This document shows positions 1,216 to 17,872 of a stretch of DNA of 64,000 nt, one piece after another. The stretch comes from Patescibacteria group bacterium (GTDB lineage: Bacteria; Patescibacteriota; Patescibacteriia; S139-126; S139-133). The DNA lies in contig JBMYTV010000004.1 in NCBI GenBank assembly GCA_049604715.1, positions 22,535 to 86,534 of the forward strand, read 5' to 3'. Under the pieces are notes generated by a model. It made no database searches. It was given only the letters and a program-made list of their open reading frames with translations, and was not told the origin of the DNA. Every line of letters starts with the position of its first letter. Positions within the stretch are counted from its first letter, which is position 1. Both the position numbers and the translations under genes were made by a program.

Positions 1216-4200
1216 ATGACTAAGATTTCATTCCCAGAGCTTGAGGAGAAGATGTTGGAGCTTTGGAGCGATAAAGATATTTTTCGTAAAACCCTAGAAA
1301 AGGAAGCGCCTCAGGGTGATTTTGTATTTTATGAAGGACCGCCAACTGCAAATGGCAAACCTGCCATTCACCATGTACTAGCGCGGTCATTTAAAGATGC
1401 TGTTCCACGGTACAAGACAATGCGAGGATATCGCGTTGGTCGTAAGGCTGGTTGGGATACACATGGACTGCCAGTGGAACTGCAGGTAGAAAAGGCTCTG
1501 GAGATTTCAGGTAAGCCTGATATTGAAAAATACGGCGTCAAAGAGTTTAACCAAAAGTGTAAGGAATCTGTTTGGCAATACAAAAATGATTGGGAGAAGT
1601 TGACCGAGCGTATGGGGTATTGGGTTGATATGGATGATCCTTATGTGACGTATGACAATGACTATATTGAAAGTTTGTGGTGGATCATGAAAGAAGTATC
1701 AAAAAAAGACCTGCTGTACTTGGGGCACAAAGTAGTGCCGCATTGTCCACGTTGTGGAACAGCTCTTTCATCACACGAGGTTGCTCAAGGGTACAAAGAA
1801 GTAAAAGATATTTCTGTTTATGTGAAATTTAAATTAAAAATAAACAATTCAAAATTAAAAATTGATGGACCGGTTTATATATTGTCTTGGACGACAACCC
1901 CTTGGACATTGCCAGGTAATGTAGGTTTGGCAGTTGGTGAGGATATAGAGTATGTTGGTATTGAGCAAGACGGTGATACTGTGTTTGTTGCCAAGAGTTT
2001 GGTTGAAAATATTTTTGAAGACCCTAAGGTTGTTAAAACTATAAAAGGCAAAGATTTGGTTGGTAGTTCGTATGAACCACTTTTTCCTGGTGCAATTCCA
2101 GAAACTGCTGACAATTATGACAATGCGTACAAAGTATGGGCAGCAGATTTTGTGACTACTGAAGATGGTACTGGTGTTGTGCATACAGCAGTCATGTATG
2201 GTGAGGATGACTATCAGCTTGGTGAGAAAGTTGGTTTACCAAAGCATCACACAGTGTCAGCAGATGGTAAGTTTTCTTTTGATGCAAAAGATGGCGTACT
2301 TGGTGAGCTTGATGGCATGCCAGTGAAACATAAAGATCCAGATGTTGAGATTGAGACTACAAAGGTTATTTTGCGTTTTCTAGCAGACAACAATATTTTA
2401 TTGAAAAAGGAAAAGTATACTCATGATTATCCGTTTTGTTGGCGCTGCGATACGCCACTATTATACTATGCTAAGGATTCATGGTTTATTGCCATGTCAA
2501 AGTTGCGTGATGAGTTAAAAGAAAACAACGATGCAGTAAACTGGGTACCAGGTCATATCAAATCAGGTCGTTTTGGTGAATGGCTTGATGGTGTAAAAGA
2601 TTGGGCTATTTCACGTGAGCGCTATTGGGGTACGCCATTGCCGGTGTGGACGAGCGAGGATAACTCAGAGATTGAGGTGATTGGCTCAAGAAAAGAACTA
2701 TATGAAAGAGCAACCAAAGAAACAAAGCCAACTCGTATTCTCATTATGAGGCATTGTGAAGGAGAGCAAAATCTCGAGGGTATTAGTTCAGATAAGCTTG
2801 AAGGATATGCATTGACTAAAAAGGGCGTAAGCCAGGCAGAGGCTTTGAGAGAGGATATAAAGAATCGAGAAATAGACTATATATATGTATCACCAATACA
2901 AAGAACAAAAGAAACAGCTGAACTTATCAATGCTGAGCTAAATGTTGAGCTTATAGAAGATGATCGTTTACTTGAGCAAGCAACAGGTGAATGGGAAGGT
3001 ATGACGCGGGCAGAGCGCAGAGAGGATCCGTATTATACCCAGCGCACTCAGTATTGGAACAGTAACGATGAAAAGGCATTTACTACAAACTTTGGCAAGA
3101 CTGGTGAGAGCTTTCAAGACGTTCAAAAGCGAATGCATGACTTGTTTAAGGACATAGCCAAAAAACATCAAGGCAAGACAGTGCTTCTTGTAACTCATCA
3201 GGCAAACCTAGTGACTGTCTTGCAGTCATCACATGGGTATTCTCCTGTGCTTACTCAAAGAATGTTCAAGCATGAGCGTACCGCGCCAGGAACTAAGCCA
3301 TTTGAATTTTACTTTAACGCAGATGGTTCAGAGTTTGATCTGCACAAGCCATTTATTGATGATGTTGTTATTGAATCAGAAAAAGGCACCAAGCTAACTC
3401 GAGACAGTGCTGTGCTTGATGTGTGGTTTGATTCAGGTGCTATGCCATATGCGCAGTGGCATTACCCATTTGAGCGCGCTGAGTATATAGACGAAGGTAG
3501 TAAGTTTCCTGCTGATTTTATTTGTGAGGCTATTGATCAAACGCGCGGATGGTTTTATACACTACTAGCAGTATCGACATTATTAGGCAAAGAGGCTCCA
3601 TATAAGAATGTGATTTGTTTGGCGCATATCAATGACAAGGAAGGAAAGAAAATGTCAAAGAGTCGCGGCAATGTAGTTGATCCATGGGAGATGATGAACA
3701 AGTATGGTATCGATGCAGTACGACTTCTCTTTTATACTATGAACCAACCAGGTGACACCAAGAATTTTGACCCAGACCTTGTTGAGCAGATTATGAAAAA
3801 GAATTTCCTGATTCTTTGGAATGTGTTGTCTTTTTATAATATGTACGTCAAAACTGTTGAGGGTAAATATCCAGCAGAACATTCTACCCATGTGCTTGAT
3901 GAGTGGATTATGGCAAAGACAAAGCAGCTCGCTCGAGAAGTTACAGAAAAAATGGAGAATTATGACTTAACCATGGCAGGTAGGGCAATTATTGAGTATA
4001 TTCAGGAGCTATCTACTTGGTATGTGCGTCGTTCTCGTGATCGATTTAAGGCTGGTGGTGAAACTTCAGCACAAGCAGTTAAAACCCTTGGGTTTGTACT
4101 TTATGAACTCAGTAAGCTGATGGCGCCACTTACACCATTCACAGCAGAAGGGTTGTATCAAGAGCTGACACAAAATCATCCTGATAAAGAAAAAGATTTC

Positions 4201-4743
4201 AAAGAGTCAATCCACCTAGAAGATTGGCCAGAAGCGCCAGAGCTTTCAAAAGAAGAAACAGCTGCGCTTGATGCTATGGAAAGTGCTCGAAAGGTTGTAG
4301 AAAAAGCATTGGCAGCGCGCGCAGAAGCAAAATTAAAGATTAGACAACCTCTTGCATCTGTGACAGTGCCGGGTAGTTTTTCTGATGATTTGAAAGCGAT
4401 TATAGCAGAAGAAGTTAATGTGAAAAAAGTTATAGACAGTGGTGAGGATGTTGTGCTTGATACTAACCTTACAGATGAGTTGAAGGCAGAAGGTTTGGTA
4501 CGTGAGACTGTAAGGTTTATTAACTCGCTACGAAAAGAGGCAAAGCTCACCATCAACGATAAAGTTACAACAGCGCTTGTAACAAAAGATGAGGTTCTGC
4601 ATAGGATTTATACAGATCACAGCGAGTCACTACAGTCAGCAACATTATCAAATACAATTGAGGTATCTGAGCTTTCAGATTATGACATAGAAAAAGTTGT
4701 AAGCATTGAAGGTGCTGACGTAAAGATTCAAATCAAGAAGTAA
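1216..4743 (+). CDS. ileS: isoleucyl-tRNA synthetase (type 2) with an inserted histidine-phosphatase-like domain
   Basis: PPTANGKPAIHHVL (HIGH), WCRCDTPL, WAISRERYWGTPLPVW, DLHKPFIDD, KMSKSRGNVVDP; 1175 aa, with an extra domain of about 190-200 aa at roughly nt 2731-3330. Confidence 0.9.
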   Translation: MTKISFPELEEKMLELWSDKDIFRKTLEKEAPQGDFVFYEGPPTANGKPAIHHVLARSFKDAVPRYKTMRGYRVGRKAGWDTHGLPVELQVEKALEISGKPDIEKYGVKEFNQKCKESVWQYKNDWEKLTERMGYWVDMDDPYVTYDNDYIESLWWIMKEVSKKDLLYLGHKVVPHCPRCGTALSSHEVAQGYKEVKDISVYVKFKLKINNSKLKIDGPVYILSWTTTPWTLPGNVGLAVGEDIEYVGIEQDGDTVFVAKSLVENIFEDPKVVKTIKGKDLVGSSYEPLFPGAIPETADNYDNAYKVWAADFVTTEDGTGVVHTAVMYGEDDYQLGEKVGLPKHHTVSADGKFSFDAKDGVLGELDGMPVKHKDPDVEIETTKVILRFLADNNILLKKEKYTHDYPFCWRCDTPLLYYAKDSWFIAMSKLRDELKENNDAVNWVPGHIKSGRFGEWLDGVKDWAISRERYWGTPLPVWTSEDNSEIEVIGSRKELYERATKETKPTRILIMRHCEGEQNLEGISSDKLEGYALTKKGVSQAEALREDIKNREIDYIYVSPIQRTKETAELINAELNVELIEDDRLLEQATGEWEGMTRAERREDPYYTQRTQYWNSNDEKAFTTNFGKTGESFQDVQKRMHDLFKDIAKKHQGKTVLLVTHQANLVTVLQSSHGYSPVLTQRMFKHERTAPGTKPFEFYFNADGSEFDLHKPFIDDVVIESEKGTKLTRDSAVLDVWFDSGAMPYAQWHYPFERAEYIDEGSKFPADFICEAIDQTRGWFYTLLAVSTLLGKEAPYKNVICLAHINDKEGKKMSKSRGNVVDPWEMMNKYGIDAVRLLFYTMNQPGDTKNFDPDLVEQIMKKNFLILWNVLSFYNMYVKTVEGKYPAEHSTHVLDEWIMAKTKQLAREVTEKMENYDLTMAGRAIIEYIQELSTWYVRRSRDRFKAGGETSAQAVKTLGFVLYELSKLMAPLTPFTAEGLYQELTQNHPDKEKDFKESIHLEDWPEAPELSKEETAALDAMESARKVVEKALAARAEAKLKIRQPLASVTVPGSFSDDLKAIIAEEVNVKKVIDSGEDVVLDTNLTDELKAEGLVRETVRFINSLRKEAKLTINDKVTTALVTKDEVLHRIYTDHSESLQSATLSNTIEVSELSDYDIEKVVSIEGADVKIQIKK

Positions 4744-4748
4744 CTACC

Positions 4749-5402
4749 ATGTCCACGTTTGTCACTCCAGCAATTCCACTGCGTATTGATCCCTTTATGC
4801 GTGATGATGAGGTTGTGACATTATATACTCGATCGCATGGAAAACTGCAAGCGCGTATTCGTGGTGGTCAGAAGCTAAGCAGTAAATTGTCACAGCGGTT
4901 TCATGTTATGCAAGAACTTGATGTTATGATTGCGCCCGGTAGACACATGGCAATAGTTGCCGGAGTGCAGACTAGGCGTATGCTGCCACAACTACAAACA
5001 GATGCACTTCGGCGGATGGTAGCACTTTGTGTAACTGATACGCTTAACCAAATTACAGCAGAAAATGACGCTGCAGTAGATGTATATGATTTTGTATCTT
5101 TTTGGCTAGCTAGTATTGCAAGCGAGGTGCCAGCTAGGTTGCATGGATCATATGTAGCACTTATTGTATGGAGATTGCTTAGCAAAACCGGGTTTGCTCC
5201 TGACACTACTAATCTTAAGCATGTTATACTAGCAGCGTTACAGGATGCGTCAATTGAGTCAGAAGCACACATACTTATACAGTCGCTCCCGTTTGCTGAA
5301 CAAGTAGAAGCCGGTAGAGAAGCCCTGCCTATTATAGAGAGTATTTTAGAACAAGAAATAAAAGGACTTCGCGTTTTGCGAGATACAACTATTAGTTTTT
5401 AG
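4749..5402 (+). CDS. recO: DNA repair protein RecO-like
   Basis: N-terminal OB-fold-like pattern (DEVVTLYTRSHGKLQARIRGGQKLSSKL...), 217 aa, tightly linked downstream of ileS. Confidence 0.55.
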   Translation: MSTFVTPAIPLRIDPFMRDDEVVTLYTRSHGKLQARIRGGQKLSSKLSQRFHVMQELDVMIAPGRHMAIVAGVQTRRMLPQLQTDALRRMVALCVTDTLNQITAENDAAVDVYDFVSFWLASIASEVPARLHGSYVALIVWRLLSKTGFAPDTTNLKHVILAALQDASIESEAHILIQSLPFAEQVEAGREALPIIESILEQEIKGLRVLRDTTISF

Positions 5403-5405
5403 TAT

Positions 5406-7199
5406 ATGCCAGCAAAAAATATACGCTCACGAGCGTCATCTTCAAAAAAATCAAACAGCCGTTTGGTGCGCAAGCCATTTCGTATGCGATGGCTTATTGG
5501 TGTTATAGTTGTCGGAGCTATTGTGTCATGGACTTTGGGTTGGTGGCAGTTTGATATTTCACAACCTTCATCTAGCGGAGTAAGTGTGGCTATTGATGCG
5601 CCTGACACAGTTGCATCAGGTGAGATTGTTAATTTACAGATACACATTACCAATGAAGAAAACGTTGCTATAGCAGAGGCTGATCTATCAATACAGTGGC
5701 CAGATGAATTACGTGTAATTGAAAGTAGTGTAGAGCCTCGTAGTATTGCCATGAGTAGCTGGACGCTTGATGAGATAGCAGTTGGTGAGAAAGTAACTAT
5801 TGATATTACAGCTCAAGCATTTGGTGAGGTGGGTGATGCAAAGGTAATTGACGCAACGCTTGTATATGAACTACAGAACTTTAGTTCGAACTTTTTTACA
5901 GAAGGAGTGCATAATTTTGTTATAGGTACAAAGATCGTTGACGTTGTATTTGATGAAACTGATGATCTGCCTCCACTGACAGAAAACGTATGGCGTATTG
6001 TTGTTACTAACGCTGATGATGAGACTCTTCCTTTGAGCTGGTTAAGAATTGTATTTCCACAGGGGTTTGAAGTAATTGAGATATCGCCTGAGCATGACGT
6101 GGTTGATTATGAGGAGTCAAAAGCAGCTATTGTGCCGCTTGATGGTATGGAAGTTGGTGAACAACAGGTACTAAAAATAACAGGGTTGTTTGCAGCTGGC
6201 ACACAAGGGAAATCAAATTTTGTTTGGCAGTATGGCATTGATACTGACGAAGATCCTCGCATTATCCAGGAAGGTTCATATGAGCAGTATGTGATTGGTG
6301 ATGAGGCTGAGGTTGAGGTTCTTTTAAACGGTGAAGAAGAACTTTCAGAACTTTCGTGGGGGGATGAGTTAGTTGTTAATTTGCGAGCACGTAACATCAC
6401 ATCAGAGGACCTAACTAATCTTGAGTGGTCACTTACTATCCCACCAAGTATGGTGACTTGGTCAGGTATACGTAGTGATTCGACGCTTTCTACTGATCAG
6501 TCAAGTGGTGTTGTGAGGCTTTTACCAGAAGATAATGACGTTTTGAAAATAATTCCAGCAGGTGATGAGCTAGAGCTTTCAGTGATTGTACCACTTGCTT
6601 CATCAGCTCAGTCACAAACATCATTTACAGGTTCAGCACGTTTGAGGTTAACGACTGAGAGCTCAGAAGAGCCATTGTCATTTACTAAAAGTTTTGGCCC
6701 CATCCAGCTTAGTGAAACAGTAAATTGGCATACAACAGCTCATTATTATTCAGATGAGGGCATTCAAGTTGGCTCTGGCCCATTGCCGCCACGAGTTGAT
6801 GACAATACAAATTACGAGATCAATTGGAATGTAGGAAGTGTTGCTGGGAATGTGGGGAGTCTCACAGTTCGTGCAACTTTGCCGCCTGATGTGAGGTGGA
6901 ATAACCAATTTTCAAGCAACCAAGGTAATGTGACTTATGTCGCCAGTACACGCCAGGTTGTTTGGTCTGTTAGTGACGTTTCTGGGTATGATTTTACTCT
7001 TGGCGAACTAGAGGCGAAGTGGGAAGCCGGCATAACTCCAAATGAGAGTGACCTTGGTACAGTCATTACACTTACTGGTGCAGCGCAAATAGAATTAACT
7101 ACAAGTGATGGTGAAATAGTTCGACTGACTAATCCGGCATTGACTACTGCACTCGAAGGTGATATTTTTGCACAGAATAAAGGAGTTGTTAGAGAGTAG
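5406..7199 (+). CDS. membrane-anchored surface protein with repeated beta-rich domains, hypothetical
   Basis: Basic N-terminus, one TM helix (WLIGVIVVGAIVSWTLGWW), then about 540 aa of acidic Ser/Thr-rich repeated segments. Confidence 0.45.
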   Translation: MPAKNIRSRASSSKKSNSRLVRKPFRMRWLIGVIVVGAIVSWTLGWWQFDISQPSSSGVSVAIDAPDTVASGEIVNLQIHITNEENVAIAEADLSIQWPDELRVIESSVEPRSIAMSSWTLDEIAVGEKVTIDITAQAFGEVGDAKVIDATLVYELQNFSSNFFTEGVHNFVIGTKIVDVVFDETDDLPPLTENVWRIVVTNADDETLPLSWLRIVFPQGFEVIEISPEHDVVDYEESKAAIVPLDGMEVGEQQVLKITGLFAAGTQGKSNFVWQYGIDTDEDPRIIQEGSYEQYVIGDEAEVEVLLNGEEELSELSWGDELVVNLRARNITSEDLTNLEWSLTIPPSMVTWSGIRSDSTLSTDQSSGVVRLLPEDNDVLKIIPAGDELELSVIVPLASSAQSQTSFTGSARLRLTTESSEEPLSFTKSFGPIQLSETVNWHTTAHYYSDEGIQVGSGPLPPRVDDNTNYEINWNVGSVAGNVGSLTVRATLPPDVRWNNQFSSNQGNVTYVASTRQVVWSVSDVSGYDFTLGELEAKWEAGITPNESDLGTVITLTGAAQIELTTSDGEIVRLTNPALTTALEGDIFAQNKGVVRE

Positions 7200-7204
7200 T
7201 AATT

Positions 7205-8329
7205 ATGAAGTATTCACTATCAAAATCATCTACTGTTTCTCAAGCACGCCGCGGCGTGCTTGAACTTTCGCATGGGAGTATAGAGGCGCCCTTTTTTATG
7301 CCTATTGCAACAAAGGGTGCTGTAAAGTCTATCACGACTACAGAGATGAGATTGCTAGGGGCACAGATTTTGCTCTCCAATACGTATCATCTATATCTTC
7401 GCCCTGGTACTGAAGTTTTGGACCAGGTGGGTGGACTACATACATTTATGGATTGGAAAGGACCCATTTTGACTGATTCGGGTGGTTTTCAGGTGTTCTC
7501 ACTGAGTGGTACTAAGTCACGCAAGGATAATCTAGTTAAAATATTTGATGATCGAGTAGAGTTTCAATCACATATTGATGGTTCAAAACATATATTTACA
7601 CCAGAAAAGGTACTTGATATTCAAAAGTCTATTGGTTCTGATGTAATGATGATTTTGGATGTGTGTACTGCTAACCCAGCAACACATGAACAGGCAATAC
7701 ATGACTTGGAGATCACAACTGCGTGGGCACGTCGAGCAAAAGAGCATTATGAAAAAGGAAGTTTTAAAGATCAATCAATGTTTGGTATTGTCCAAGGATC
7801 AACATATAGTGATTTGAGACAACAGTCAGCTCAAGATCTAGTAAGCTTGGATTTTGACGGATATGCTATTGGCGGTTTGGCTGTGGGAGAGTCTGAGGTG
7901 GATATGTACGCTATGCTTGATGTGACGACTCATCTTTTGCCTGAGGATGCGCCGCGGTATTTAATGGGAGTAGGAAAACCAGAGAATATTATAGAGGCAG
8001 TGAAGCGAGGTGTTGATATGTTTGATTGTGTTATTCCAACACGTGAGGCACGACATGGTCGTCTTTATCTTTGGCAGAACAAAGATGTAACAAAGCCTGG
8101 TTTTTATAAGACCGTTGCTATTACAAACGCATCATATGCTACTGACTTCACACCCCTGGTCGCTGACTCAAAAATTCCAGAACTACAAAATTTAACTAAA
8201 GCTTACTTGCATCATTTGTTTCGCACCTCAGAACCTTTAGCACTTCGTATTGCAAGTCTTATTAATATAGAATTTTATCTTACTCTTATGCAGCGTATTC
8301 GTGCTGCAATTGAAGCTGATCAACTGTAG
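7205..8329 (+). CDS. tgt: queuine tRNA-ribosyltransferase
   Basis: LLSNTYHLYLRPG, LTDSGGFQVFSL, GIVQGSTY, DGYAIGGLAVGE, MGVGKPENIIEAV, MFDCVIPTR; C-terminal CxCxxC zinc motif absent. Confidence 0.85.
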   Translation: MKYSLSKSSTVSQARRGVLELSHGSIEAPFFMPIATKGAVKSITTTEMRLLGAQILLSNTYHLYLRPGTEVLDQVGGLHTFMDWKGPILTDSGGFQVFSLSGTKSRKDNLVKIFDDRVEFQSHIDGSKHIFTPEKVLDIQKSIGSDVMMILDVCTANPATHEQAIHDLEITTAWARRAKEHYEKGSFKDQSMFGIVQGSTYSDLRQQSAQDLVSLDFDGYAIGGLAVGESEVDMYAMLDVTTHLLPEDAPRYLMGVGKPENIIEAVKRGVDMFDCVIPTREARHGRLYLWQNKDVTKPGFYKTVAITNASYATDFTPLVADSKIPELQNLTKAYLHHLFRTSEPLALRIASLINIEFYLTLMQRIRAAIEADQL

Positions 8330-8335
8330 AAATCG

Positions 8336-8344
8336 TGGTATACT
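8336..8344 (+). promoter_or_regulatory. extended -10 promoter element candidate (TGgTATACT)
   Basis: TG-N-TATACT 22 nt upstream of the 8366 ATG; no good -35. Confidence 0.25.
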
Positions 8345-8365: not shown

Positions 8366-8731
8366 ATGACATCTGTTTTTTTGCATACATTAAAATTACT
8401 CACTTGGGATTTACTACGTGATATATTGTATTTTCCCGTCTGGTGGTATACCGAAGGGCTTTTGTTGATGTGGCAGCGTTTTTTTACTGCTATTATGTCA
8501 TGGCAACATAGGCTTGGACTTGGTATATGGGTCAAGAATTGGTTCAAGCCTATGTATGCGCAATTTGATTGGCAGGGCCGGCTTATTAGCTTCTTCTTTC
8601 GTACACTTACTATTTTGTGGAAGACTATAGAGTTCTTCCTCGGTTTTGTGTTGATTATTTTAGGTTTCTTTTTGTATTTAGTTTTGCCATTTGTTGCAAT
8701 CGTATTGTTAGTATATTCATTCTTGGTATGA
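8366..8731 (+). CDS. small polytopic membrane protein, hypothetical; first gene of the Clp-like operon
   Basis: 121 aa, about 3 TM helices; its stop overlaps the next ATG (ATGA). Confidence 0.45.
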   Translation: MTSVFLHTLKLLTWDLLRDILYFPVWWYTEGLLLMWQRFFTAIMSWQHRLGLGIWVKNWFKPMYAQFDWQGRLISFFFRTLTILWKTIEFFLGFVLIILGFFLYLVLPFVAIVLLVYSFLV

Positions 8732-11463
8732 ACGAGAACCAACCACAAACAATTAATAGCGCAATTACACTAGTGTCATGTAAAAATGACAACGGTGATG
8801 CTGAGCACAAACGTTTGAGACGCAAGTGTGGTGGCCTTGATGTATATGCAACATGGAACAATGTAACTTTTACTTGGGGGCCAAAGTTTTCTGAAGGCGG
8901 CATGCGTGTGTGGGACATGGAGAGGGCGTTTTTCTGGTTTGTAAATATTGTACTGTTCTTCATGGCAGTTGCTGGTGTCGTAAATGCTGTTATTGTGATT
9001 ACTGTACAAGCACAGTTGATTCCTTGGCAGTACTTGTTATTCCTGCCTGAGCTTTCCTATACATGGGTTGGTATTTTAGCAGCATGTTTTGGTGCATATC
9101 GTATTTATCGCTATTCTGAAGCCAATGCTTCACTCGAGCACATTGCTCATGAGCAAGGAGCAAAAAAACAATCTGTTGAGCTCTCTAAGGTGATGAGTAA
9201 AGAAAGTTGGCAGATTCTGAGGGCGTTTTGGAAGTATTGCCATGGTCAGCAGATTGCCATAGCCCATCCTATTCATTTGTTTGCAGTTCTTTTGCAATAC
9301 CCTACGATTGGTTCGTTATTTGTGCGGCTGGGTGTTGATCAGATGAAGCTTGCTGAGATTACCAAAGCTATGGTCGCGCAGCAGTCACGTGTTCGTGAAG
9401 GTAGGGCAAGTTTGCAGATAGATCCAGTACTCAAAGAATGCTTGTTTAGAAGTGTTGGGCATGCATTGGACAAGCAACTTGATCATATCGAGCCACAGCA
9501 TTTGTTATTAGAAGTTATTGCCAAAACTCCTGTTATTCAAGATTTGTTTGATGAGCTTGATGTAAGTCAGCAAGAAATAGGTCAGATGATTGGGTGGTTT
9601 GATATTGAGCAAAAGCTACAAAGCAGATATGCACAGTTTAATCGTTTTTCAGCGCTTAGGCCAAAGTCAAACCTAAACAGATCAATGACTGCTATAGCAA
9701 CTCCTATATTGGATATGTTTTCACAGGACATTACCCAAATAGCAGCATCTGGTCGTTTGACATTCTGTATTGGCAGAAAAAGAGTTATTGATGAAGTGTT
9801 TAGACTTGCGGAAAGTGGCTCTACAAATATTGTACTAGTTGGTCCCGAGGGTGTTGGTAAATCTACGATCATTGGAGCGCTTGCTGAGCGTATGATCACA
9901 GAACAAGTTCCGGAGTTATTTAAAGATAAACGCCTTGTGGCTTTGTCTATCCCAAAGTTACTTGCAGGAGCAACTGCATCAGGTATGGTAGAGCAGCGAT
10001 TATTGGCAATCCGTGATGAGGTTATGCGATCAGGTAACATAATTTTGTTTATTGATAATGTGCATGACTTAGTAGGTGCAAGTGGTCAGGGAGATGCAGG
10101 TCTTGATACTTCAGAGTTAGTGGCACGTATTATGGAGCGCCATGAAATACCTGTGCTTGCTACAAGTAATCCAGTTGATCATCGCCGATTTATAGCAGGA
10201 AAGTCACTAGGTAGTGTACTTGAGCGAGTAGATGTGCCTGAGCCAACACCAGATGAGACAATGGCAATCATGCAGTCACAAACTAGTTTTTTTGAATACA
10301 AATATAAGGTCTACTTTTCTTTTAAATCAATGCAAAAGATTATAGAACTTGCTGATCGATATATGTATGAACATGTATTTCCAGAAAAAGCACTTCGCCT
10401 CATGGAGGAGATCGCAGTTCATATCAAAAACACACGCGGTGAAAAACAACTCATTACCGCAGAAGATGTAGCAGCTCTTGTGTCTGAGAAAGTGAATATG
10501 CCACTCACAGCAATTACGGAAACCGAAAGTGAGACATTGCTGAATTTAGAATCTATTATTCATGAGCGCCTTGTTAATCAAGAGCTTGCGGTCAAGGCTG
10601 TTGCTTCAGCGCTGAGGCGTGCCCGTACAGAGTTACGTGATACAGGTAGGCCTATTGTTAACCTCTTGTTCTTAGGCCCAACAGGTGTTGGTAAGACAGA
10701 GCTTGCAAAAACTGTTGCAGCTGTGTACTTTGGTGCTGAGTCAGAGCTACTCAGACTTGATATGTCAGAGTACCAAAACCAAAACTCGCTCGCGCGTCTT
10801 ATAGGTAGTGAGTCGGATCCAAATGGAGGATATTTAACCGAAGGCATAAAGCAAAAACCATATACAGTACTGCTTCTTGATGAGCTTGAAAAAGCACACC
10901 CTGATATTTTAAATGTATTCTTACAAGTTATGGATGATGGTCGCCTGACAGATTGGGCTGGTCAGACAGTAGATTTTACAAATGTAATTTTGATTGCAAC
11001 ATCAAATGCAGGTACGCAGTTTTTGCAAGATGAACTAAGAAAAAATACACCACTTGATGCAATCAAAGAGGCGCTTATACAAAACGAGTTAAAGGCATCA
11101 TACCGACCAGAATTTTTGAATCGTTTTGATAATATCATTGTGTTCAAACCACTAAGCCAAGAACATATCAAACAGGTTGCAGGCCTTATGCTGAAGAAAA
11201 ATGCAAAACGTTTACAAACCAAAGGAATTACTTTGGAAGTTACTGATGCTGCCCTTACTGAGATGGCGCGAGCTGGTTATGATCCACTTTACGGTGCTCG
11301 TCCAATGCGCCGGCTTATACAGGATACAGTCGATGATGCTATTGCTAAATTCCTATTGACTGGTAGTGTTAGTAGGAGAGATACTGTTGTTTTGGATGTA
11401 GGTGGCAAAATTAATGTGAAAAAGGGAAGAACCTTATACAACACATCTGCGAGGGGAACTTAA
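8727..11463 (+). CDS. membrane-anchored ClpA/ClpB-family double-AAA+ ATPase (unfoldase/disaggregase-like)
   Basis: Two N-terminal TM helices, two Clp_N-like repeats, D1 Walker A GPEGVGKST, D1 Walker B FIDNVH (E to N), D2 Walker A GPTGVGKTE, D2 Walker B LLLDELEKAHPD, sensor GARPMRRLIQD; no IGF/LGF ClpP loop. Confidence 0.8.
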
Positions 11464-11712
11464 ATGACACAACACGAGATTGATCTGGTGTATGATATTT
11501 TAGCTGATACTATTGGCTATAGCATACAAGTTATCAATCCTGATTATGTGCGCATTACCCGCTGTCCGTGTATAGTATGTCGCCGAGACATGTCAGCTAT
11601 GCGCATCGTATATATTGTTCGGCGTAACACGCCATATTTGGTTACGTATTATTGTCTAACATGTGGTTCTTTTACTGATCCAATTGATAACTATATAGAC
11701 TGCTCAAGGTGA
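11464..11712 (+). CDS. small Cys4 zinc-ribbon protein, hypothetical; translationally coupled to the Clp-like gene
   Basis: 82 aa with CPCIVC ... CLTCGS; its ATG immediately follows the TAA of the Clp-like gene. Confidence 0.4.
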   Translation: MTQHEIDLVYDILADTIGYSIQVINPDYVRITRCPCIVCRRDMSAMRIVYIVRRNTPYLVTYYCLTCGSFTDPIDNYIDCSR

Positions 11713-11726
11713 GCAGTCTTGTTTTT
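11698..11726 (+). terminator. rho-independent terminator candidate
   Basis: GACTGCTCA-AGG-TGAGCAGTC 9-bp stem followed by TTGTTTTT; overlaps the stop codon of the 11464 gene. Confidence 0.5.
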
Positions 11727-11829
11727 GGCTTGACAATATGAAACAAATATTGCAAAGATAATTAGGCTGTAACGCAGTATAGTTCTTTACTAAATAACTT
11801 AGTTCCACATTTTTCACGAGGCAAGATCC

Positions 11830-12885
11830 ATGAGATTATTTTTGCAGGTGTTGTTAATGGCAGTATTAGGGTTCAGCGTAATGGCTGATGAGTTAACGCA
11901 GCTCCAGGTGCTGCAGGGTGAAAGGGAGTCGCATTTTGGTTCTCGGATATCCACAGATAGCGGTCTGCTTGCGATAGCTGCGCCACTGAGTAATGTTGGC
12001 GGCACTGCGCATGTATATAAAATGATCAACTATGAGTACAAGAAAATAGCTGACATTTTTCGAAATAACATGCCTGGTTTTGCACTTTTTGCTCGATCAG
12101 TGTCTATACGCAAACAGTACGGTGACCAGCTTTTCTTGGCAGTGGTTGGACAAGGTGACCAGGCAGGTTTTCATCTGTATGTTGCCACAGACTTAACGCA
12201 TCGTAGTTCAGAGGATTGGCAGCTAATAAGCAGCCAGAAAATTCCTGATGGACTACAAGGTGCCCATGCAGCACAGACGTACAACAGGAACATATTTTCC
12301 AGGCCAGATCTTTCCGTCACATATGAGCTCAAAGCTGATGTTACTTTGCATGACTACTCTGTTACTACCGAGAAGGTAGACTTTGGAAATAAGCAGCGTA
12401 GATTCACTATTACCAGCGGGTTGTTTAACGGGTATTTAGTTGCCCAGGTTTTTGATAAAAAGATTTATATCAAGTACGAAGATACTGATCCGCATTTATT
12501 GGTTGACGCTGTTAGTGCTACTAGCCTAGGTCATTATATTGATGCAGATGCTACATATTTTGTTGTTACACGTGAAGAGGGCGGCGTGCATTTTGTTGAT
12601 TATTATCTTATCGCCGGTACAGCAGTTAGACGACTAGACGTTATCCGGTGTTACGAAAAACCGTATTCAGTTAGTATTGAAAACGGGCATATAGCTGTTG
12701 GGTACCGCGGCCGTTTTGATTTGTATAAGGCCAATATTTATAATAAAGTAACCCAACTTCTTACAAAAGGCGGATCAGGCAGATTCGGAGAAGAAACGCG
12801 TTTGCATTATTATTCTAAAACAATGTATGTGTTTGTTGGCAATGTGAGCAATGATACCGTGACAATTCTTAGTTTAAAGAAGTAA
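11830..12885 (+). CDS. secreted protein, hypothetical
   Basis: N-terminal signal peptide MRLFLQVLLMAVLGFSVMA; 351 aa. Confidence 0.5.
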   Translation: MRLFLQVLLMAVLGFSVMADELTQLQVLQGERESHFGSRISTDSGLLAIAAPLSNVGGTAHVYKMINYEYKKIADIFRNNMPGFALFARSVSIRKQYGDQLFLAVVGQGDQAGFHLYVATDLTHRSSEDWQLISSQKIPDGLQGAHAAQTYNRNIFSRPDLSVTYELKADVTLHDYSVTTEKVDFGNKQRRFTITSGLFNGYLVAQVFDKKIYIKYEDTDPHLLVDAVSATSLGHYIDADATYFVVTREEGGVHFVDYYLIAGTAVRRLDVIRCYEKPYSVSIENGHIAVGYRGRFDLYKANIYNKVTQLLTKGGSGRFGEETRLHYYSKTMYVFVGNVSNDTVTILSLKK

Positions 12886-12892
12886 GCTATAG

Positions 12893-12925
12893 GCAGTACC
12901 AAAGGTGCTGCTTTTATTGCTTTTA
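12893..12925 (+). terminator. terminator-like hairpin
   Basis: GCAGTACC-AAA-GGTGCTGC stem (one G.U pair) followed by TTTTATTGCTTTT. Confidence 0.35.
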
Positions 12926-12969
12926 AAAATTATTAGGTTTATTCTAATATTAGAGTATTAATTATTTTT

Positions 12970-14541
12970 ATGCCGGACAATCAACAATTAAAATCAGAGC
13001 CTAAGTTCAATACCGAACACGTAAATACAGAGTCAAAGTCACTTATTGAGCGAATGCCTCTATCAGTAACCTGGGCAGTATTTATTATATTGCTTAGTAT
13101 TTTGGGTGCGGTGGTTTATTTTGTCTTTTTTTCACCACAAAGTATGCAGTTCATGCGTAAGGACATGAGCATTTTCATTTCTGACAACTCAACAGATGTG
13201 ATGCAAGAGGACAATGCTGATGGGCAGCTAGAAGATTATGCTGAGAGCATGATTTTGTATGAAAAGCCAAAGTATCATATTTCATTTGATTATCCACAAG
13301 ATTGGACCATACAGGAAGATGATATAGACAATATATCAAATCCTGGGTTTAAAGTACGTTTAGAAAGCGCAGCTTCAGATGATAGTATGACAATTTCTGT
13401 AACAGAAAAGTATCCAAATACATTTGATTTTTTTGATCCAGTCTCTGCGCCTTCATTTGTGCCGGATGAGGAGCTATTTAAAAAGGAACATGAAAATGGT
13501 TTTTGCGACGTGTTAGCTTGTTCTGACCCATTTACCTCATTTTGGTTTGAGAAAAATGGTTATTTTTATACATTTGTAATTGATACACTAGAGCCTAGTA
13601 TGATTGATAATTTTATTTTCAAATCAGTGAAAGTAGATCCTGTATCTGGTTCTGAGTGGATTACATACACAAATGATGAATATGGATATTCTTTTGCATA
13701 CCCAGACAACTGGATATTAGAAAACGGACTAATAAACCCCACTGCAATACAGTACCATCCAATTGGCTCGAATACTGCTGCCATAAACTTTGGTGTGTAT
13801 TCTGAAAATCAGGAACTTTATAGATCAAGCGACTCAGTGTATGACTACAATCTTATAGCAAGTAGAATTGAAAAGTATGAAGATACAGCAATGGTTATAG
13901 AGTTTATCATAAATAATCATGTGTTTAGATCTTATGAGTATGTAGATGACGGTAGTCTTGAGGGCGATAGTGTTGGCGAAGTATATATGTTTGTAAGTGA
14001 TCCATTTGAAGTTGGTGGTGAAGAGTTTCGTTTGGCCTTATCCTGGATAGAGAATCCCGGGGGATACACAGAGAATCCATATGTAAAAAATACATTTATT
14101 GAGATGTTGTCTACTATCAAGATCAGTCCTGATCTACTTAAAGATGAAAGTGTGTTGTATACAAATAATAATTATGGCTTTGGTATTAATTTACCAAAGG
14201 GTTGGGAGATGCAAGAAGCATCAAGTGTTGATGGAGAGGGATTTTTTGTCTTAGAGGGAGACAAGGAAGTGCGTATACTCCCAAGTGGCGGCTTTGATAC
14301 TGGCATCACATGTTCTGCTCCTGGGGTAGGTTTTGTAGCAGGGAAGGAGACTAGAGCCACAAACTGTGATGTAAACGGAGTAATGGTTATTCATCATTTT
14401 CTCCCCAACGAAGACTTGCCGTCTGGTTGGGTTTCATGTACAGATGAGTACAAAAATTGTCACAGGATAGAGATTTATTCACCAAATGCAGGTGCTTCAA
14501 AAGAGCTTCTAGATATACTTGATACATTTACGCTTAACTAA
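12970..14541 (+). CDS. membrane-anchored extracytoplasmic protein, hypothetical
   Basis: TM helix at residues ~30-55 (WAVFIILLSILGAVVYFVFF) followed by about 470 aa of acidic sequence. Confidence 0.5.
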   Translation: MPDNQQLKSEPKFNTEHVNTESKSLIERMPLSVTWAVFIILLSILGAVVYFVFFSPQSMQFMRKDMSIFISDNSTDVMQEDNADGQLEDYAESMILYEKPKYHISFDYPQDWTIQEDDIDNISNPGFKVRLESAASDDSMTISVTEKYPNTFDFFDPVSAPSFVPDEELFKKEHENGFCDVLACSDPFTSFWFEKNGYFYTFVIDTLEPSMIDNFIFKSVKVDPVSGSEWITYTNDEYGYSFAYPDNWILENGLINPTAIQYHPIGSNTAAINFGVYSENQELYRSSDSVYDYNLIASRIEKYEDTAMVIEFIINNHVFRSYEYVDDGSLEGDSVGEVYMFVSDPFEVGGEEFRLALSWIENPGGYTENPYVKNTFIEMLSTIKISPDLLKDESVLYTNNNYGFGINLPKGWEMQEASSVDGEGFFVLEGDKEVRILPSGGFDTGITCSAPGVGFVAGKETRATNCDVNGVMVIHHFLPNEDLPSGWVSCTDEYKNCHRIEIYSPNAGASKELLDILDTFTLN

Positions 14542-14665: not shown

Positions 14666-15952
14666 ATGGTGATAGCAAAAATAGGAGATTACAAAGATAA
14701 ACAAGTAACAATAAAGGGGTGGGTTTATAATTTTCGTTCTTCAGGCAAGATCGCGTTTTTGCAAATCCGCGATGGTAGCGGCTTTATTCAGGCAATTGTT
14801 GAGAAGACAAGCGTAGACGAAGCATCATGGCAAGTAGTGCAGGAGCTAACCCAAGAATCAAGTGTATCTCTAACAGGACAGGTAAGTGAACATCCAAAAC
14901 AACCAGGTGTATATGAACTTCAAGTGACTAAGCTTGAGCTTATACAAAAAGCAGAAGAGTACCCAATTTCAAACAAAGAACATGGCCCAGAGTTTTTGCT
15001 TGATAACAGGCATTTGTGGTTGAGATCAAAAAAACAATGGGCAATTCAGCGTGTACGTAACATTATTATTAATGCTATGTACGAGTATTTGAACCAAGAA
15101 GGATTTATAAAGATCGACGCGCCTATTTTGACTCCAACATCATGCGAGGGAACAACTGAGCTTTTTGAGCTGGAATATTTTGATGAGCAAAAAGCATACC
15201 TTTCTCAGAGTGGTCAGCTCTACATAGAGGCTGGTATTTTCGCTCATGGTCGTGTGTTTGATTTTGGTCCAACTTTTCGTGCAGAAAAATCAAAAACACG
15301 TCGGCACTTATCTGAGTTTTGGATGATGGATGCAGAGGCTGCATTTGTTGAACATGCTGAGAATATGCAGATCCAGGAAGGCTTAATACAACATGTTGCC
15401 AAAAAAGTATTAGAATTAGGTTCAGAAGAACTAGCTATTTTGGAACGTGATACAGCGCCACTGGAAAAATTACAAAAACCTTTTAAGCGAATGACGCATG
15501 CAGAGGCTGTAGCATTTTTACAAAAAAACGGATCTGATATTGGCGACCGTGATGATCTTGGTGCAGATGATGAGACAAAATTAACAGAAAATAGCGATGT
15601 GCCAATTTTCGTAGAAAAGTGGCCAAAAGAAATAAAAGCATTTTATATGAAACGTGATGATAACGACGCCGATCTGGTGCTCGGGGCTGATTTGATAGCC
15701 ACCGAAGGATTTGGTGAAGTTATCGGCGGTTCCGAGCGTGAAACAGACTACTCCCTTCTTGTGAAACGAATGGAGGAAGAGAATTTGCCGCAAGAGCCGT
15801 TCCAGTGGTATTTGGATTTGCGAAAGTATGGTTCAGTCCCTCACTCAGGTTTTGGTGTCGGACTTGAGCGACTTGTCGCTTGGATGACTGGAACTCATCA
15901 TGTCCGTGAGACCATTCCATTTCCTCGTATGATTCATCGTTTAACTCCGTAA
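14666..15952 (+). CDS. asnS: class IIb aminoacyl-tRNA synthetase, most likely asparaginyl-tRNA synthetase
   Basis: N-terminal OB fold, motif 2 FRAEKSKTRRHLSEFWMMDAE, motif 3 GFGVGLERLVAWMTG; 428 aa; a bacterial-type aspS lies next door. Confidence 0.65.
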   Translation: MVIAKIGDYKDKQVTIKGWVYNFRSSGKIAFLQIRDGSGFIQAIVEKTSVDEASWQVVQELTQESSVSLTGQVSEHPKQPGVYELQVTKLELIQKAEEYPISNKEHGPEFLLDNRHLWLRSKKQWAIQRVRNIIINAMYEYLNQEGFIKIDAPILTPTSCEGTTELFELEYFDEQKAYLSQSGQLYIEAGIFAHGRVFDFGPTFRAEKSKTRRHLSEFWMMDAEAAFVEHAENMQIQEGLIQHVAKKVLELGSEELAILERDTAPLEKLQKPFKRMTHAEAVAFLQKNGSDIGDRDDLGADDETKLTENSDVPIFVEKWPKEIKAFYMKRDDNDADLVLGADLIATEGFGEVIGGSERETDYSLLVKRMEEENLPQEPFQWYLDLRKYGSVPHSGFGVGLERLVAWMTGTHHVRETIPFPRMIHRLTP

Positions 15953-15963
15953 TAATCATCCCC

Positions 15964-16458
15964 ATGATTAACCAAGCGCATTTTTCATACCCGTTTTTGT
16001 TAGCATTGCTTATTGCTATGCTTATAGGACATTCGTTTACTTTGGGGGAAGTCTTTGTCATTTTGACGGCTTCTGTTTTTCCTGATGTTGATTTTCTTTT
16101 TGGTATGTGGTCAGAGTTTAAACATCCGGAAAAGAAAGAAAGCCATCATGCGTATATTACGCATGCACCACTTGTATATGTACCGATCATTATAGTTCTT
16201 ATGGTTATTGAGATGAAACTGGGGTTACTTGTTATGTATGGGCTGCTTACACACTTTATTATGGATTCTCTTGTTGCGCCTGATGGTATTAGATGGTTAT
16301 ACCCTTTCAAGGACAAGTTTTATTTGTGGACAAAGATTACAAAAGACTTATACGGCTTTGCCTTTTTAAATAAGTATCGTAGTTTGCGTCTATACACAGT
16401 TGATAACATTGCATTTTTAGTGACGGTCGTTATTGTGGTGTACATGATAACTACTTAA
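15964..16458 (+). CDS. membrane protein, possibly metal-dependent hydrolase-like (YdjM/DUF457-like)
   Basis: 4 TM helices with conserved His and Asp positions (HSFTLG, HHAYITH, HFIMD). Confidence 0.35.
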   Translation: MINQAHFSYPFLLALLIAMLIGHSFTLGEVFVILTASVFPDVDFLFGMWSEFKHPEKKESHHAYITHAPLVYVPIIIVLMVIEMKLGLLVMYGLLTHFIMDSLVAPDGIRWLYPFKDKFYLWTKITKDLYGFAFLNKYRSLRLYTVDNIAFLVTVVIVVYMITT

Positions 16459-16468
16459 ATACATTTAT

Positions 16469-17872
16469 ATGAAAATTACTCGAAACATTGATGTAAACGA
16501 AAAAATTGGAGCAGAAGTTACGCTGTATGGCTGGGTGAACACCAGACGAAATATGGGCAAGATTGCTTTTATTGATTTACGTGATCGTAGTGCGCTTTTA
16601 CAAGTTGTACTTGTTCCAGCTGAACTTGATGAAACATCAGCAGCGCATATGCCTATGATTCGCCCTGAATATGTTTTAAAAATTACCGGCATTGTTCAAG
16701 AGCGAGGTGAAAAACAAAAAAATGCGGACCTTGCAACTGGTGGTGTAGAAGTTTTGGCAAAAAGCCTTGAGATCATAAATGAGGCTGAGACACCGCCATT
16801 TGAGATTGATAATGAAGACAGACAGGCCAATGAAGAGCTTCGTATGAAGCATCGCTATCTGGATCTCCGGCATGAGCGCATGAAAGATAATATGGTTTTG
16901 AGGCATGACATTATCAAGTATATGCGTGAGTTTTTCTATGATAAGGATTTTCTTGAAATAGAAACACCATTTATTTCTAAATCAACTCCAGAGGGTGCGC
17001 GTGACTTTTTGGTGCCATCACGAAACTGGCCAGGAAAGTTTTATGCACTCCCACAGTCACCTCAACAGTATAAGCAAATGCTTATGGTTGCAGGTATGGA
17101 AAGGTACTTCCAGATTGTTAGATGTTTCCGTGATGAAGATGCTAGAGGCGATAGGCAACCTGAGTTTACACAGCTTGATGTTGAGATGAGTTTTGTTGAA
17201 CAAGAAGATATTTTGCAGATGGTTGAGACATTGGTAAAGGGATTAGTTGAGTCAGTCACGCCAGATAAGAAGTTTACGTTTACGCCATTTAAGCGCCTTA
17301 CTTTTGACGAGGCTATGAAAGAGTATGGTACTGATAGGCCAGACCTTCGTAAAGATAAAAACGATCCAGATGAACTTGCATTTGCTTTTGTTCTAGATTT
17401 TCCTATGTTTGAGTATAAGGAAGGTGATGAGCGCTGGGGTGCAACACATCATCCATTTACATCACCACAAACAGATGACATTGAGAAACTAGATGACAAG
17501 GATAAGATGGGGGAGATTAAGGCATTTCAGTATGACTTAGTGGTAAATGGCTATGAAGTAGCTGGTGGTTCTATCAGAACGCATGATCCAAAGGTTCTAC
17601 AGCGAGTATTTGAGCTTCTTGGTCATACAGAAAAAGAAATAGAAGAACAGTTCGGTCACTTACTTGAGAGTTTCAAATACGGCGTGCCGCCACATGGAGG
17701 TGTTGCTTTTGGCCTTGATCGATTGATCATGGTTATGGCTGGCGAACCAAGCATCAGGGAGGTTATTGCCTTCCCAAAGACTACAGATAACCGTGACATT
17801 TTGATGGACGGCCCGTCTGAAGTGCCTCAAGAACAGCTTGATGAGCTTGGTCTTAGTATTAACAAGAAATAA
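16469..17872 (+). CDS. aspS: aspartyl-tRNA synthetase, bacterial type lacking the GAD insertion domain
   Basis: LPQSPQQYKQMLMVAGMERYFQIVRCFRDEDARGDRQPEFTQLDVEMSF, GGSIRTHD, GGVAFGLDRLIMVM; only 467 aa. Confidence 0.9.
   Translation: MKITRNIDVNEKIGAEVTLYGWVNTRRNMGKIAFIDLRDRSALLQVVLVPAELDETSAAHMPMIRPEYVLKITGIVQERGEKQKNADLATGGVEVLAKSLEIINEAETPPFEIDNEDRQANEELRMKHRYLDLRHERMKDNMVLRHDIIKYMREFFYDKDFLEIETPFISKSTPEGARDFLVPSRNWPGKFYALPQSPQQYKQMLMVAGMERYFQIVRCFRDEDARGDRQPEFTQLDVEMSFVEQEDILQMVETLVKGLVESVTPDKKFTFTPFKRLTFDEAMKEYGTDRPDLRKDKNDPDELAFAFVLDFPMFEYKEGDERWGATHHPFTSPQTDDIEKLDDKDKMGEIKAFQYDLVVNGYEVAGGSIRTHDPKVLQRVFELLGHTEKEIEEQFGHLLESFKYGVPPHGGVAFGLDRLIMVMAGEPSIREVIAFPKTTDNRDILMDGPSEVPQEQLDELGLSINKK

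Follow-up and report, generated by a model that had tools for sequence, protein, structure and literature searches.

A two-gene membrane system built on an unusual Clp/Hsp100-type ATPase is encoded in a 64,000-nucleotide stretch of the genome of an uncultivated Patescibacteria bacterium (contig JBMYTV010000004.1; hereafter the window). Gene A specifies a small membrane protein, and gene B, directly downstream, a membrane-anchored ATPase with two AAA+ modules, D1 and D2. Judged from sequence, A–B is a Clp/Hsp100 subfamily with a distinctive pattern of losses and gains and a new partner protein. Selection has kept the catalytic motifs of D2 and has added a membrane anchor and a small membrane subunit, but it has removed D1 catalysis, the M-domain, the ClpP loop and the pore loops of both modules. 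The pair is supported as a putative ClpP-independent, membrane-dedicated Clp-family machine. Its elements in the window are as follows.

8366–8731, plus strand: gene A, 121-residue Trp-rich small membrane protein; open reading frame (ORF), conserved partner of B
8728–11463, plus strand: gene B, 911-residue membrane-anchored class-I Clp/Hsp100-type AAA+ ATPase with two AAA+ modules (ORF, Pfam, AlphaFold2); best start, the ATG at 8728
8728–8892, plus strand: B residues 1–55, cytoplasmic segment before the membrane helices, with a degenerate remnant of a DnaJ-like zinc ribbon (CxxCxGxG twice) and a beta-hairpin
8893–9123, plus strand: B residues 56–132, predicted transmembrane (TM) helical hairpin (hydropathy; AlphaFold2 helices 56–94 and 107–132)
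9133–9657, plus strand: B residues 136–310, divergent Clp_N-like helical N-domain and linker helix (model, weak sequence match)
9721–10512, plus strand: B residues 332–595, D1 AAA+ module, degenerate (alignments)
9841–9864, plus strand: D1 Walker A, GPEGVGKS
9964–9984, plus strand: D1 pore loop, AGATASG, no aromatic residue
10048–10065, plus strand: D1 Walker B, FIDNVH (Asn444 codon AAT at 10057–10059)
10519–11421, plus strand: B residues 598–898, D2 AAA+ module, catalytically complete by motifs (alignments)
10675–10698, plus strand: D2 Walker A
10804–10830, plus strand: D2 truncated pore loop, GSESDPNGG, with GYVG deleted
10870–10887, plus strand: D2 Walker B
11293–11313, plus strand: D2 sensor 2, GARPMRR

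Class Assignment and Membrane Anchor of B

Pfam searches of B recovered AAA_2 (2e-50), ClpB_D2-small (2.5e-24), AAA (6.5e-21, over two stretches) and AAA_lid_9 (7e-8), and the protein has the class-I Clp/Hsp100 layout of an N-domain, a D1 AAA module with AAA_lid_9 and a D2 AAA_2 module with ClpB_D2-small. The NCBIfam models for ClpB, ClpA, ClpK, ClpG and ClpV align to it at 25–50% of their curated cut-offs: 535.8 bits against 1232 for the ClpB equivalog (TIGR03346/PRK10865), 457.2 against 993 for ClpA (TIGR02639/PRK11034), 366.6 against 885 for ClpV/TssH (TIGR03345), and 454 and 416 against 1900 for the ClpK and ClpG exception models. Because all of these scores fall below cut-off, B is, on profile evidence, a class-I Clp/Hsp100 outside all named subfamilies. 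A preliminary description of the locus, made from the DNA alone, had called B a dedicated membrane-associated ATPase distinct from housekeeping ClpB and ClpC; the profile scores bear this out, as do canonical Clp genes found adjacent to the pair in three related genomes. The AlphaFold2 model of B is confident (predicted local distance difference test, pLDDT, 90.2; predicted template modeling score, pTM, 0.81), and its nearest solved folds in the PDB are those of ClpC, ClpC1 and ClpB.

The two N-terminal TM helices noted at the outset are evident in hydropathy and in the model, and an N-terminal TM hairpin occurs in 114 of the 120 best B homologues. In the model, a small beta/alpha element precedes the helices. 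On this combined evidence, the hairpin is predicted to tether B to the membrane on its cytoplasmic side. Many homologues open with CxxCxGxG...CxxCxGxG and give sub-threshold matches to Pfam DnaJ_CXXCXGXG; window B gives no match to that family and keeps just Cys18 and Cys34, two of the four cysteines having been lost, as in its closest relatives. The Clp_N repeats attributed to B score below the Pfam threshold of 20.7 bits (16.6 bits, E 0.009), but AlphaFold2 models an eight-helix N-domain at residues 136–276, followed by the linker helix. The alignment of the NCBIfam ClpA model to B starts at residue 158. The TM hairpin and the N-domain are the least conserved parts of the protein (15.5% and 21% identity, respectively).

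A Degenerate D1 Module

Motifs were tabulated for 127 family members aligned with canonical Clp references from the same loci, with B. subtilis ClpC and T. thermophilus ClpB serving as residue-level references for window B. The D1 Walker A keeps its G..GxGK core family-wide (Lys in 118 members, Arg in nine), and the next residue is Ser or Thr in only 75. The D1 Walker B had been read as FIDNVH, with Asn in place of the catalytic Glu, and that reading is correct; the position holds Asn in 85 members, Asp in 34 and Glu in two. Since Asn or Asp recurs across the family, FIDNVH is not a sequencing error, and the AAT codon lies two base changes away from GAA or GAG. The Walker B Asp is itself retained in only 51 members.

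The remaining D1 elements have diverged as well. The pore loop reads AGATASGMVE in window B, compared with AGAK[YF]RGEFE in canonical Clps, and carries an aromatic residue in none of the 127 proteins. The canonical Arg fingers (ALERRFQ) are replaced by SLGSVLE; across the family, Arg occupies the first position in nine members and is recorded in none at the second. Overall, D1 shows 45% identity and 1.49 bits of entropy. These motifs support a hydrolysis-dead D1 as a predicted family trait. The preliminary description had likened the Asn to a "trap" substitution; loss of the Glu is indeed a family trait, but D1 is also without Arg fingers and, in most members, without the Walker B Asp.

A Catalytically Complete D2 without Its Pore Loop

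Walker A, Walker B, sensor 1, Arg finger and sensor 2 are all present in D2 of window B and are kept in 125–127 of the 127 members. The D2 large subdomain is the most constrained region of the protein, with 62% mean identity to window B and a column entropy of 0.99 bits. The module had been called intact, which is true of its catalytic motifs but overlooks the deletion of the GYVG pore loop: where canonical Clps have GSPPGY[IV]GxxEGG, window B reads GSES/DPNGG, with four residues missing at the slash. The GY[IV]G residues are deleted in 114–118 members, Tyr being kept in five, and the residual loop is rich in Gly, Ser, Asp and Pro. Tyr701 (in GGYLTE) was considered as a substitute pore residue and rejected, as the canonical Clps P0114 and P0118 carry GGYLT too. 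Of the aromatic pore loops that identify a functional class-I unfoldase, KYR in D1 and GYVG in D2, B therefore has neither.

Two further absences, of a ClpB-type M-domain and of an IGF/LGF ClpP loop, had been recorded from the sequence and extend to the family. The D1–D2 linker has a median length of 25 residues, compared with 148 in the co-resident canonical Clp; in the alignments of window B, ClpB residues 412–504 are skipped and ClpC residues 402–457 have no counterpart. The ClpP-docking tripeptide [ILVM]G[FL] occurs in the D2 loop of one member of the 127 and not in window B, which has a six-residue gap at the ClpC VGF loop.

The Small Membrane Partner A

The product of gene A consists of a helical N-terminal region of ~75–90 residues followed by a hydrophobic C-terminal membrane segment. 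Its family is marked by the invariant motifs FPxWWY..GL and PMY.Q.D..GR.IS..R, and searches of Pfam and NCBIfam matched the protein to no family. A profile search with A retrieved 509 clusters at 50% identity, nearly all of them free-standing proteins of 105–160 residues. The upstream protein had been described as having three TM helices, which are not evident: AlphaFold2 (pLDDT 85.6) predicts two long helices linked by a conserved loop, and hydropathy analysis finds a single hydrophobic segment, strongly hydrophobic only in the C-terminal 30–40 residues. Lys and Arg abound in its N-terminal part. In natural fusions of A with B, just one further TM helix separates the hydrophobic segment of A from the cytoplasmic N-domain. 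We infer an N-in protein that crosses the membrane once. A Foldseek search of the A model against the PDB gave no significant match (best E 4.5).

Conservation of the A–B Pair across Patescibacteria

Related loci (numbered with the prefix L) were gathered by a one-genome-per-species scan with an eight-sequence D1 alignment, which yielded 30 Patescibacteria loci; L031–L034 (Chloroflexi/Ktedonobacteria, with unrelated canonical Clps) and L035 (a spurious match) were discarded from the family. An A homologue lies immediately 5′ of B on the same strand in all 30 (phmmer E 1e-10 to 3e-25). In the four closest relatives (L036–L039, 52–64% identity), an A gene of 120–124 codons overlaps B by 4 or 16 nucleotides, and A is also found upstream in the distant homologues L041, L042 and L043 (33–36% identity), in one of them as an uncalled ORF. 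Thus A sits directly 5′ of unfused B in all 37 related Patescibacteria loci examined and in the window. The nearest ATG in the B frame falls between −11 and +18 nucleotides from the A stop in 27 of 31 loci, and ATGA-type 4-nucleotide overlaps recur. Such an overlap had been proposed for the window and can be read directly in its sequence, gene B starting four nucleotides before the end of gene A.

Two distant homologues, P0102 (locus L040) and P0107, are single proteins in which an A domain forms the N-terminal end and the ATPase follows; positions 17–113 of the A hidden Markov model (HMM) align to residues 9–105 (E ~1e-14). Owing to this Rosetta-stone fusion and the invariant adjacency, A and B almost certainly form one predicted complex, and the choice of the upstream small membrane protein as partner in the preliminary description was well founded. 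The window locus has all the features of the A–B family, which are common to the 37 loci with a separate A and to the fusions P0102 and P0107. A further protein, P0240 (414 residues), has an A domain (residues 160–258) that runs, within one ORF, into the apparent N-terminal pre-TM/TM region of a B homologue. Either this is one more fusion, or the gene call, made on a contig of high GC, extends too far.

The best 120 B homologues are nearly all 880–925 residues long, and those with names belong to Falkowbacteria, Buchananbacteria (placed within the Parcubacteria group by NCBI taxonomy) and unclassified Patescibacteria; the related genome loci add Uhrbacteria to this range. Eleven TPA_asm loci from metagenome-assembled genomes (MAGs; L004, L005, L008, L009, L011, L013, L018, L022, L025, L029 and L030) are labelled "uncultured Gammaproteobacteria", and another MAG locus, L012, "Candidatus Binatia". 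These labels are probably wrong, given that the loci carry a Patescibacteria-type A–B locus and synteny.

Proposed Mechanism and Alternatives

Clp/Hsp100 enzymes depend critically on aromatic pore loops to unfold proteins processively (PMC5425593, PMC5741831). The preliminary description had envisaged A–B as an unfoldase or extraction machine, which presumes threading, and both aromatic pore loops are missing across the family; with neither ring equipped in this way, processive threading is unlikely. We propose instead that B works at the membrane as a clamp or switch driven by nucleotide, without threading and together with its partner A, and regard this package, taken whole, as evenly poised between right and wrong. 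B would form rings, as expected from established knowledge of AAA+ proteins, in which the D1 ring would bind nucleotide or play a purely structural part in assembly, leaving D2 as the sole motor, with hydrolysis there as the power source. The complex would act without ClpP and without Hsp70 coupling through an M-domain, and processive threading of polypeptides would most likely be no part of its action. As D2 turns over ATP, the complex would pass through a conformational cycle like that of a clamp or switch, relayed via the zinc-ribbon region, the N-domain and the TM helices to a client that is remodelled, released or gated at the membrane, with A acting as a fixed membrane partner or adaptor. 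By analogy, we infer a cycle that would resemble that of Torsin with LAP1/LULL1 more than that of ClpB.

A more elaborate form of the proposal is offered tentatively and is, on balance, doubtful. Here, A–B would be a bacterial Hsp100 that gave up threading, a membrane-embedded A6B6-type machine working as a D2-powered, non-translocating clamp or gate, either as a counterpart of Torsin and its cofactor or as a gate like Bcs1 or PTEX, and it may serve envelope or surface building in episymbiotic members of the candidate phyla radiation (CPR).

Several points weigh against a non-threading clamp. Loss of the canonical pore loops is no proof against translocation, as substrate could be contacted by different loops. 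Polypeptide clients are suggested by the N-domain and by the DnaJ-like zinc ribbon, and would fit an unfoldase-like role. The fused homologues P0102 and P0107 keep the D1 Walker B Glu, so D1 inactivity is not universal. The D2 of B keeps its own Arg finger and A is not AAA-like, unlike Torsin and its cofactor. Finally, hexamer formation and the A:B stoichiometry are assumed from knowledge of the wider family.

The strongest alternative, in line with the preliminary description, is a membrane-tethered threading unfoldase or extractase resembling Msp1, or FtsH without its protease. It would draw membrane or envelope proteins from the bilayer into and through its central pore, using non-canonical pore contacts and A as an adaptor or substrate receptor. 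Such an enzyme would account for the class-I Clp architecture with all D2 catalytic motifs, for the membrane anchoring of B, and for the Clp_N-like N-domain and the zinc ribbon of many members, and the predicted fold of B superposes on substrate-bound ClpC and ClpB protomers. We nevertheless consider it unlikely: no D1 pore aromatic is found in the 127 members, GYVG is deleted in about 115 of them, the Tyr of GGYLTE is no replacement, and pore loops are required for translocation by Hsp104/ClpB (PMC5741831, PMC5425593).

Loss of gripping pore loops is also compatible with cargo that is not threaded, as in an ATP-driven membrane gate or translocon. Six copies each of A and B would line a channel or cavity with their TM helices, and D2 hydrolysis would open it or push cargo across, in the manner of Bcs1 or HSP101–EXP2. 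A device of this kind could serve the biogenesis of the envelope or of surface proteins, consistent with at least three TM helices per A–B pair, a two-helix topology preserved in the fusions, and synteny with envelope genes in many lineages. The TM regions, however, are the least conserved in B (15.5% identity), and very little of the protein loops out beyond the membrane; shared gene order says little about function in genomes as streamlined as those of CPR bacteria, and the window is without the GT4 and DUF192 genes of the shared neighbourhood. We accordingly rate a gate as improbable.

Slightly less probable again is a mostly non-mechanical regulatory scaffold, a nucleotide-dependent switch that would sequester or release a factor at the membrane, like the Clp-like plant proteins of the SMAX1/D53 type, with A as the anchor. 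The degenerate D1 and the lost pore loops fit such a scaffold, and some members give weak NBD_SMAX1 Pfam matches, but D2 is under the tightest constraint and its catalytic residues hardly vary, which argues for selected ATP hydrolysis and against a pseudo-enzyme. An artefact, in which an ordinary clpB or clpC gained the Walker B Asn or the TM segment through faulty sequencing, assembly or gene calling, can be set aside: more than 120 independent homologues, drawn from many assemblies, show these features too, two base changes separate the Asn codon from those for Glu, and NCBI calls the same 911-residue product.

Comparison with Known Systems

Two-module Clps (ClpC, ClpC1, ClpB and ClpA) share the two-AAA+-module architecture with B and provide its best sequence and fold matches. 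ClpA has a short D1–D2 junction like that of B, and ClpB, like B, has a D2 loop region without a ClpP loop. B differs from ClpA, ClpB and ClpC in its TM-hairpin anchor and small membrane partner and in having neither D1 Glu and Arg fingers nor pore-loop tyrosines; it is without the M-domain of ClpB and ClpC and without the IGF/VGF loop of ClpA and ClpC. The features that define ClpC, namely a short MecA-binding M-domain, a VGF loop and active D1 and D2 modules, are not found in B. FtsH combines a TM hairpin and a single AAA module with an M41 zinc protease, whereas B has two Clp-type AAA modules and no peptidase M41 match.

The nearest functional precedent is Torsin of the eukaryotic ER and nuclear envelope, a membrane-associated Clp relative without aromatic pore loops that works with a membrane-spanning cofactor, LAP1 or LULL1 (PMC5425593). 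B resembles it as a Clp-related, membrane-associated AAA+ protein without pore loops and with a membrane partner; the likeness is drawn as a functional analogy. Torsin has a single AAA+ module and receives its Arg finger from an AAA-like cofactor (PMC5425593), whereas B has two modules and a small helical partner. Torsin is lumenal, and B is predicted to be cytoplasmic.

NSF is one of the tandem AAA+ proteins with a structural ring: its inactive D2 ring retains a P-loop, plausibly for assembly, and the other ring is the motor. B likewise has one P-loop ring that is predicted not to hydrolyse; the active ring of NSF keeps its aromatic pore loops and threads SNAREs, whereas the active ring of B has lost them. 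Msp1/ATAD1 and FtsH place an AAA+ ring at the cytoplasmic membrane face by means of an N-terminal anchor, as B does. Msp1 grips its substrate with aromatic pore loops (PMC7018516), and both Msp1/ATAD1 and FtsH are single-module, classic-clade AAA proteins with such gripping loops, unlike B. Plasmodium PTEX (HSP101 on the EXP2 pore) and mitochondrial Bcs1, compared here by description only, are cases in which a pore or cavity in the membrane is coupled to an AAA or Hsp100 protein; HSP101, unlike B, is soluble and keeps its pore-loop tyrosines, and its pore belongs to a separate protein family. In full-text literature searches, neither the A family nor any Hsp100 that is anchored in the membrane or specific to CPR bacteria was found described, and public annotations are generic.

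Searches of the PADLOC defence-system models matched only the D2 core of B (residues ~527–868; 1e-26 to 7e-35, to Dodola DolB and PDC-M37B), and defence membership was rejected; PADLOC gave no match for A or for ORF C, the reading frame downstream of B. No type VI secretion genes were found near B, whose neighbours are tgt, a DUF11 protein and tRNA synthetases, and the context is thus not that of ClpV/TssH.

Significance

Clp/Hsp100 machines are a standard example of hand-over-hand threading by tyrosine pore loops. A–B is a sizeable natural family, with more than 120 B homologues and the 509 clusters of partner A. If it does not thread, the family would show other uses of the Hsp100 scaffold and would offer a tractable bacterial comparison for Torsin, for which, to our knowledge, the mechanism is still unknown. 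If it does thread, translocation would be possible without aromatic pore loops. In either case, A–B is a lineage-specific, unannotated membrane system of Patescibacteria, with a partner protein outside the Pfam and NCBIfam families, in a group whose envelope biology is poorly understood.

Genomic Neighbourhood and Canonical Clp Enzymes

In many Patescibacteria lineages (L003, L006–L009, L015 and others), the gene order is DUF4012, a DUF11 surface-type protein, tgt, A, B, GT4 (MraY/WecA-like) and DUF192. The window keeps the upstream part only, with the DUF11 protein at 5406–7199 and tgt at 7205–8329. The window as a whole has 40% G+C and an almost entirely plus-strand gene array.

Three genomes (L013, L016 and L019) encode a canonical 879-residue Clp ATPase divergently beside A–B (in L016 at 3976–6615, minus strand), and the membrane family therefore coexists with the housekeeping enzyme and does not replace it. 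The canonical protein has two Clp_N repeats, KFRGEFE, FIDELH, ALERRFQ, GYIG, a 148-residue M-domain and an IGF tripeptide. Its ClpB-length M-domain, together with IGF where ClpA and ClpC dock ClpP, amounts to an unusual hybrid of ClpB and ClpC features. B is the only Clp-type ATPase among window ORFs of at least 80 codons, a search that did not extend to clpP.

A search for CIRCE and CtsR sites upstream of A–B gave no evidence that the pair is under heat-shock control: perfect CIRCE operators occur only in L013, L016 and L019, ~30 nucleotides from the start of the divergent canonical clp. These operators, TTAGCACTC-N9-GAGTGCTAA with no mismatches, lie at L013:6632–6658, L016:6643–6669 and L019:6510–6536, within the divergent intergenic region and ~100–130 nucleotides from gene A. 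They imply that the canonical Clp of these three genomes would be under HrcA-type heat-shock control. In the distant locus L041, the A–B pair has as its divergent neighbour a small heat-shock gene of the HSP20 type (L041:3171–3620, minus strand).

The discarded loci L031–L034 (Ktedonobacteraceae/Chloroflexia) encode soluble canonical Clp ATPases of ~1200 residues with an extra N-terminal domain of ~400 residues. Each of these genes is preceded by a gene for a ~770–830-residue protein that clusters with CPR DUF4012 proteins.

Locus Boundaries, ORF C and a Lineage-Specific Insertion

A, B and ORF C are three consecutive plus-strand ORFs that together span 8366–11712. The features that flank the pair are listed below.

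8336–8344, plus strand: possible extended −10 promoter element, TGgTATACT, picked out by eye from the sequence, 21 nucleotides 5′ of the gene A start and within the 36-nucleotide tgt–A gap
11464–11712, plus strand: ORF C, 82-residue Cys-rich (CxCxxC...CxxC) orphan; not a conserved part of the system
11697–11729, plus strand: intrinsic-terminator-like hairpin (10-bp stem, 3-nucleotide loop) with a T-run (scan and folding)
11830–12885: ORF of 351 codons, hydrophobic N-terminus, no Pfam match
12970–14541: ORF of 523 codons, TM segment near the N-terminus

A consensus promoter scan did not call the TGgTATACT element, and a −35 match is absent. The gene B product is 100% identical to an NCBI protein of a Patescibacteria MAG annotated "AAA family ATPase"; in the same annotation A and C are hypothetical proteins. 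A Shine–Dalgarno (SD)-like motif, under a lax criterion, precedes just six of the 40 start codons checked in the window. The genome seems to initiate translation largely without SD motifs, and many of its genes abut or overlap.

The preliminary description had grouped A, B and C in one three-gene operon, with C as a zinc-ribbon component. Two of its structural details can be seen in the sequence: B and C abut without a gap (TAA–ATG at 11461–11466), and a terminator-like hairpin (folding energy −16.5 kcal/mol, z = −2.8) follows, overlapping the ORF C stop codon. The conserved unit, though, comprises two genes, A and B. No homologue of ORF C was found in 34 Patescibacteria family loci (phmmer over L001–L035, tblastn over L001–L039), and a database of 5.8 billion proteins returned only ORF C itself. 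Its codon score, 0.038, falls between those of real genes (0.31 ± 0.10) and off-frame sequence (−0.54 ± 0.21), and the SD-like motif before it lies inside the B coding sequence, in a genome that rarely uses such motifs. The proposal of a zinc-ribbon system component is thus not upheld, ORF C having no homologue and being absent between B and the next conserved genes in the closest relatives.

In those relatives (L036–L039), B is followed directly by a tRNA-synt_2 / YdjM / tRNA-synt_2 block that in the window lies at 14666–17872. Because they pass from B straight to tRNA-synt_2, the intervening segment at 11464–14541 is, by this comparison of sequences, a lineage-specific insertion. It holds ORF C and the 351- and 523-codon ORFs, and the closest relatives are without all three. 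Within the block itself, paralogous class-II tRNA-synt_2 genes (428 and 467 codons; Asp/Asn/Lys-type) flank a YdjM-family gene, an arrangement kept in L036–L039.

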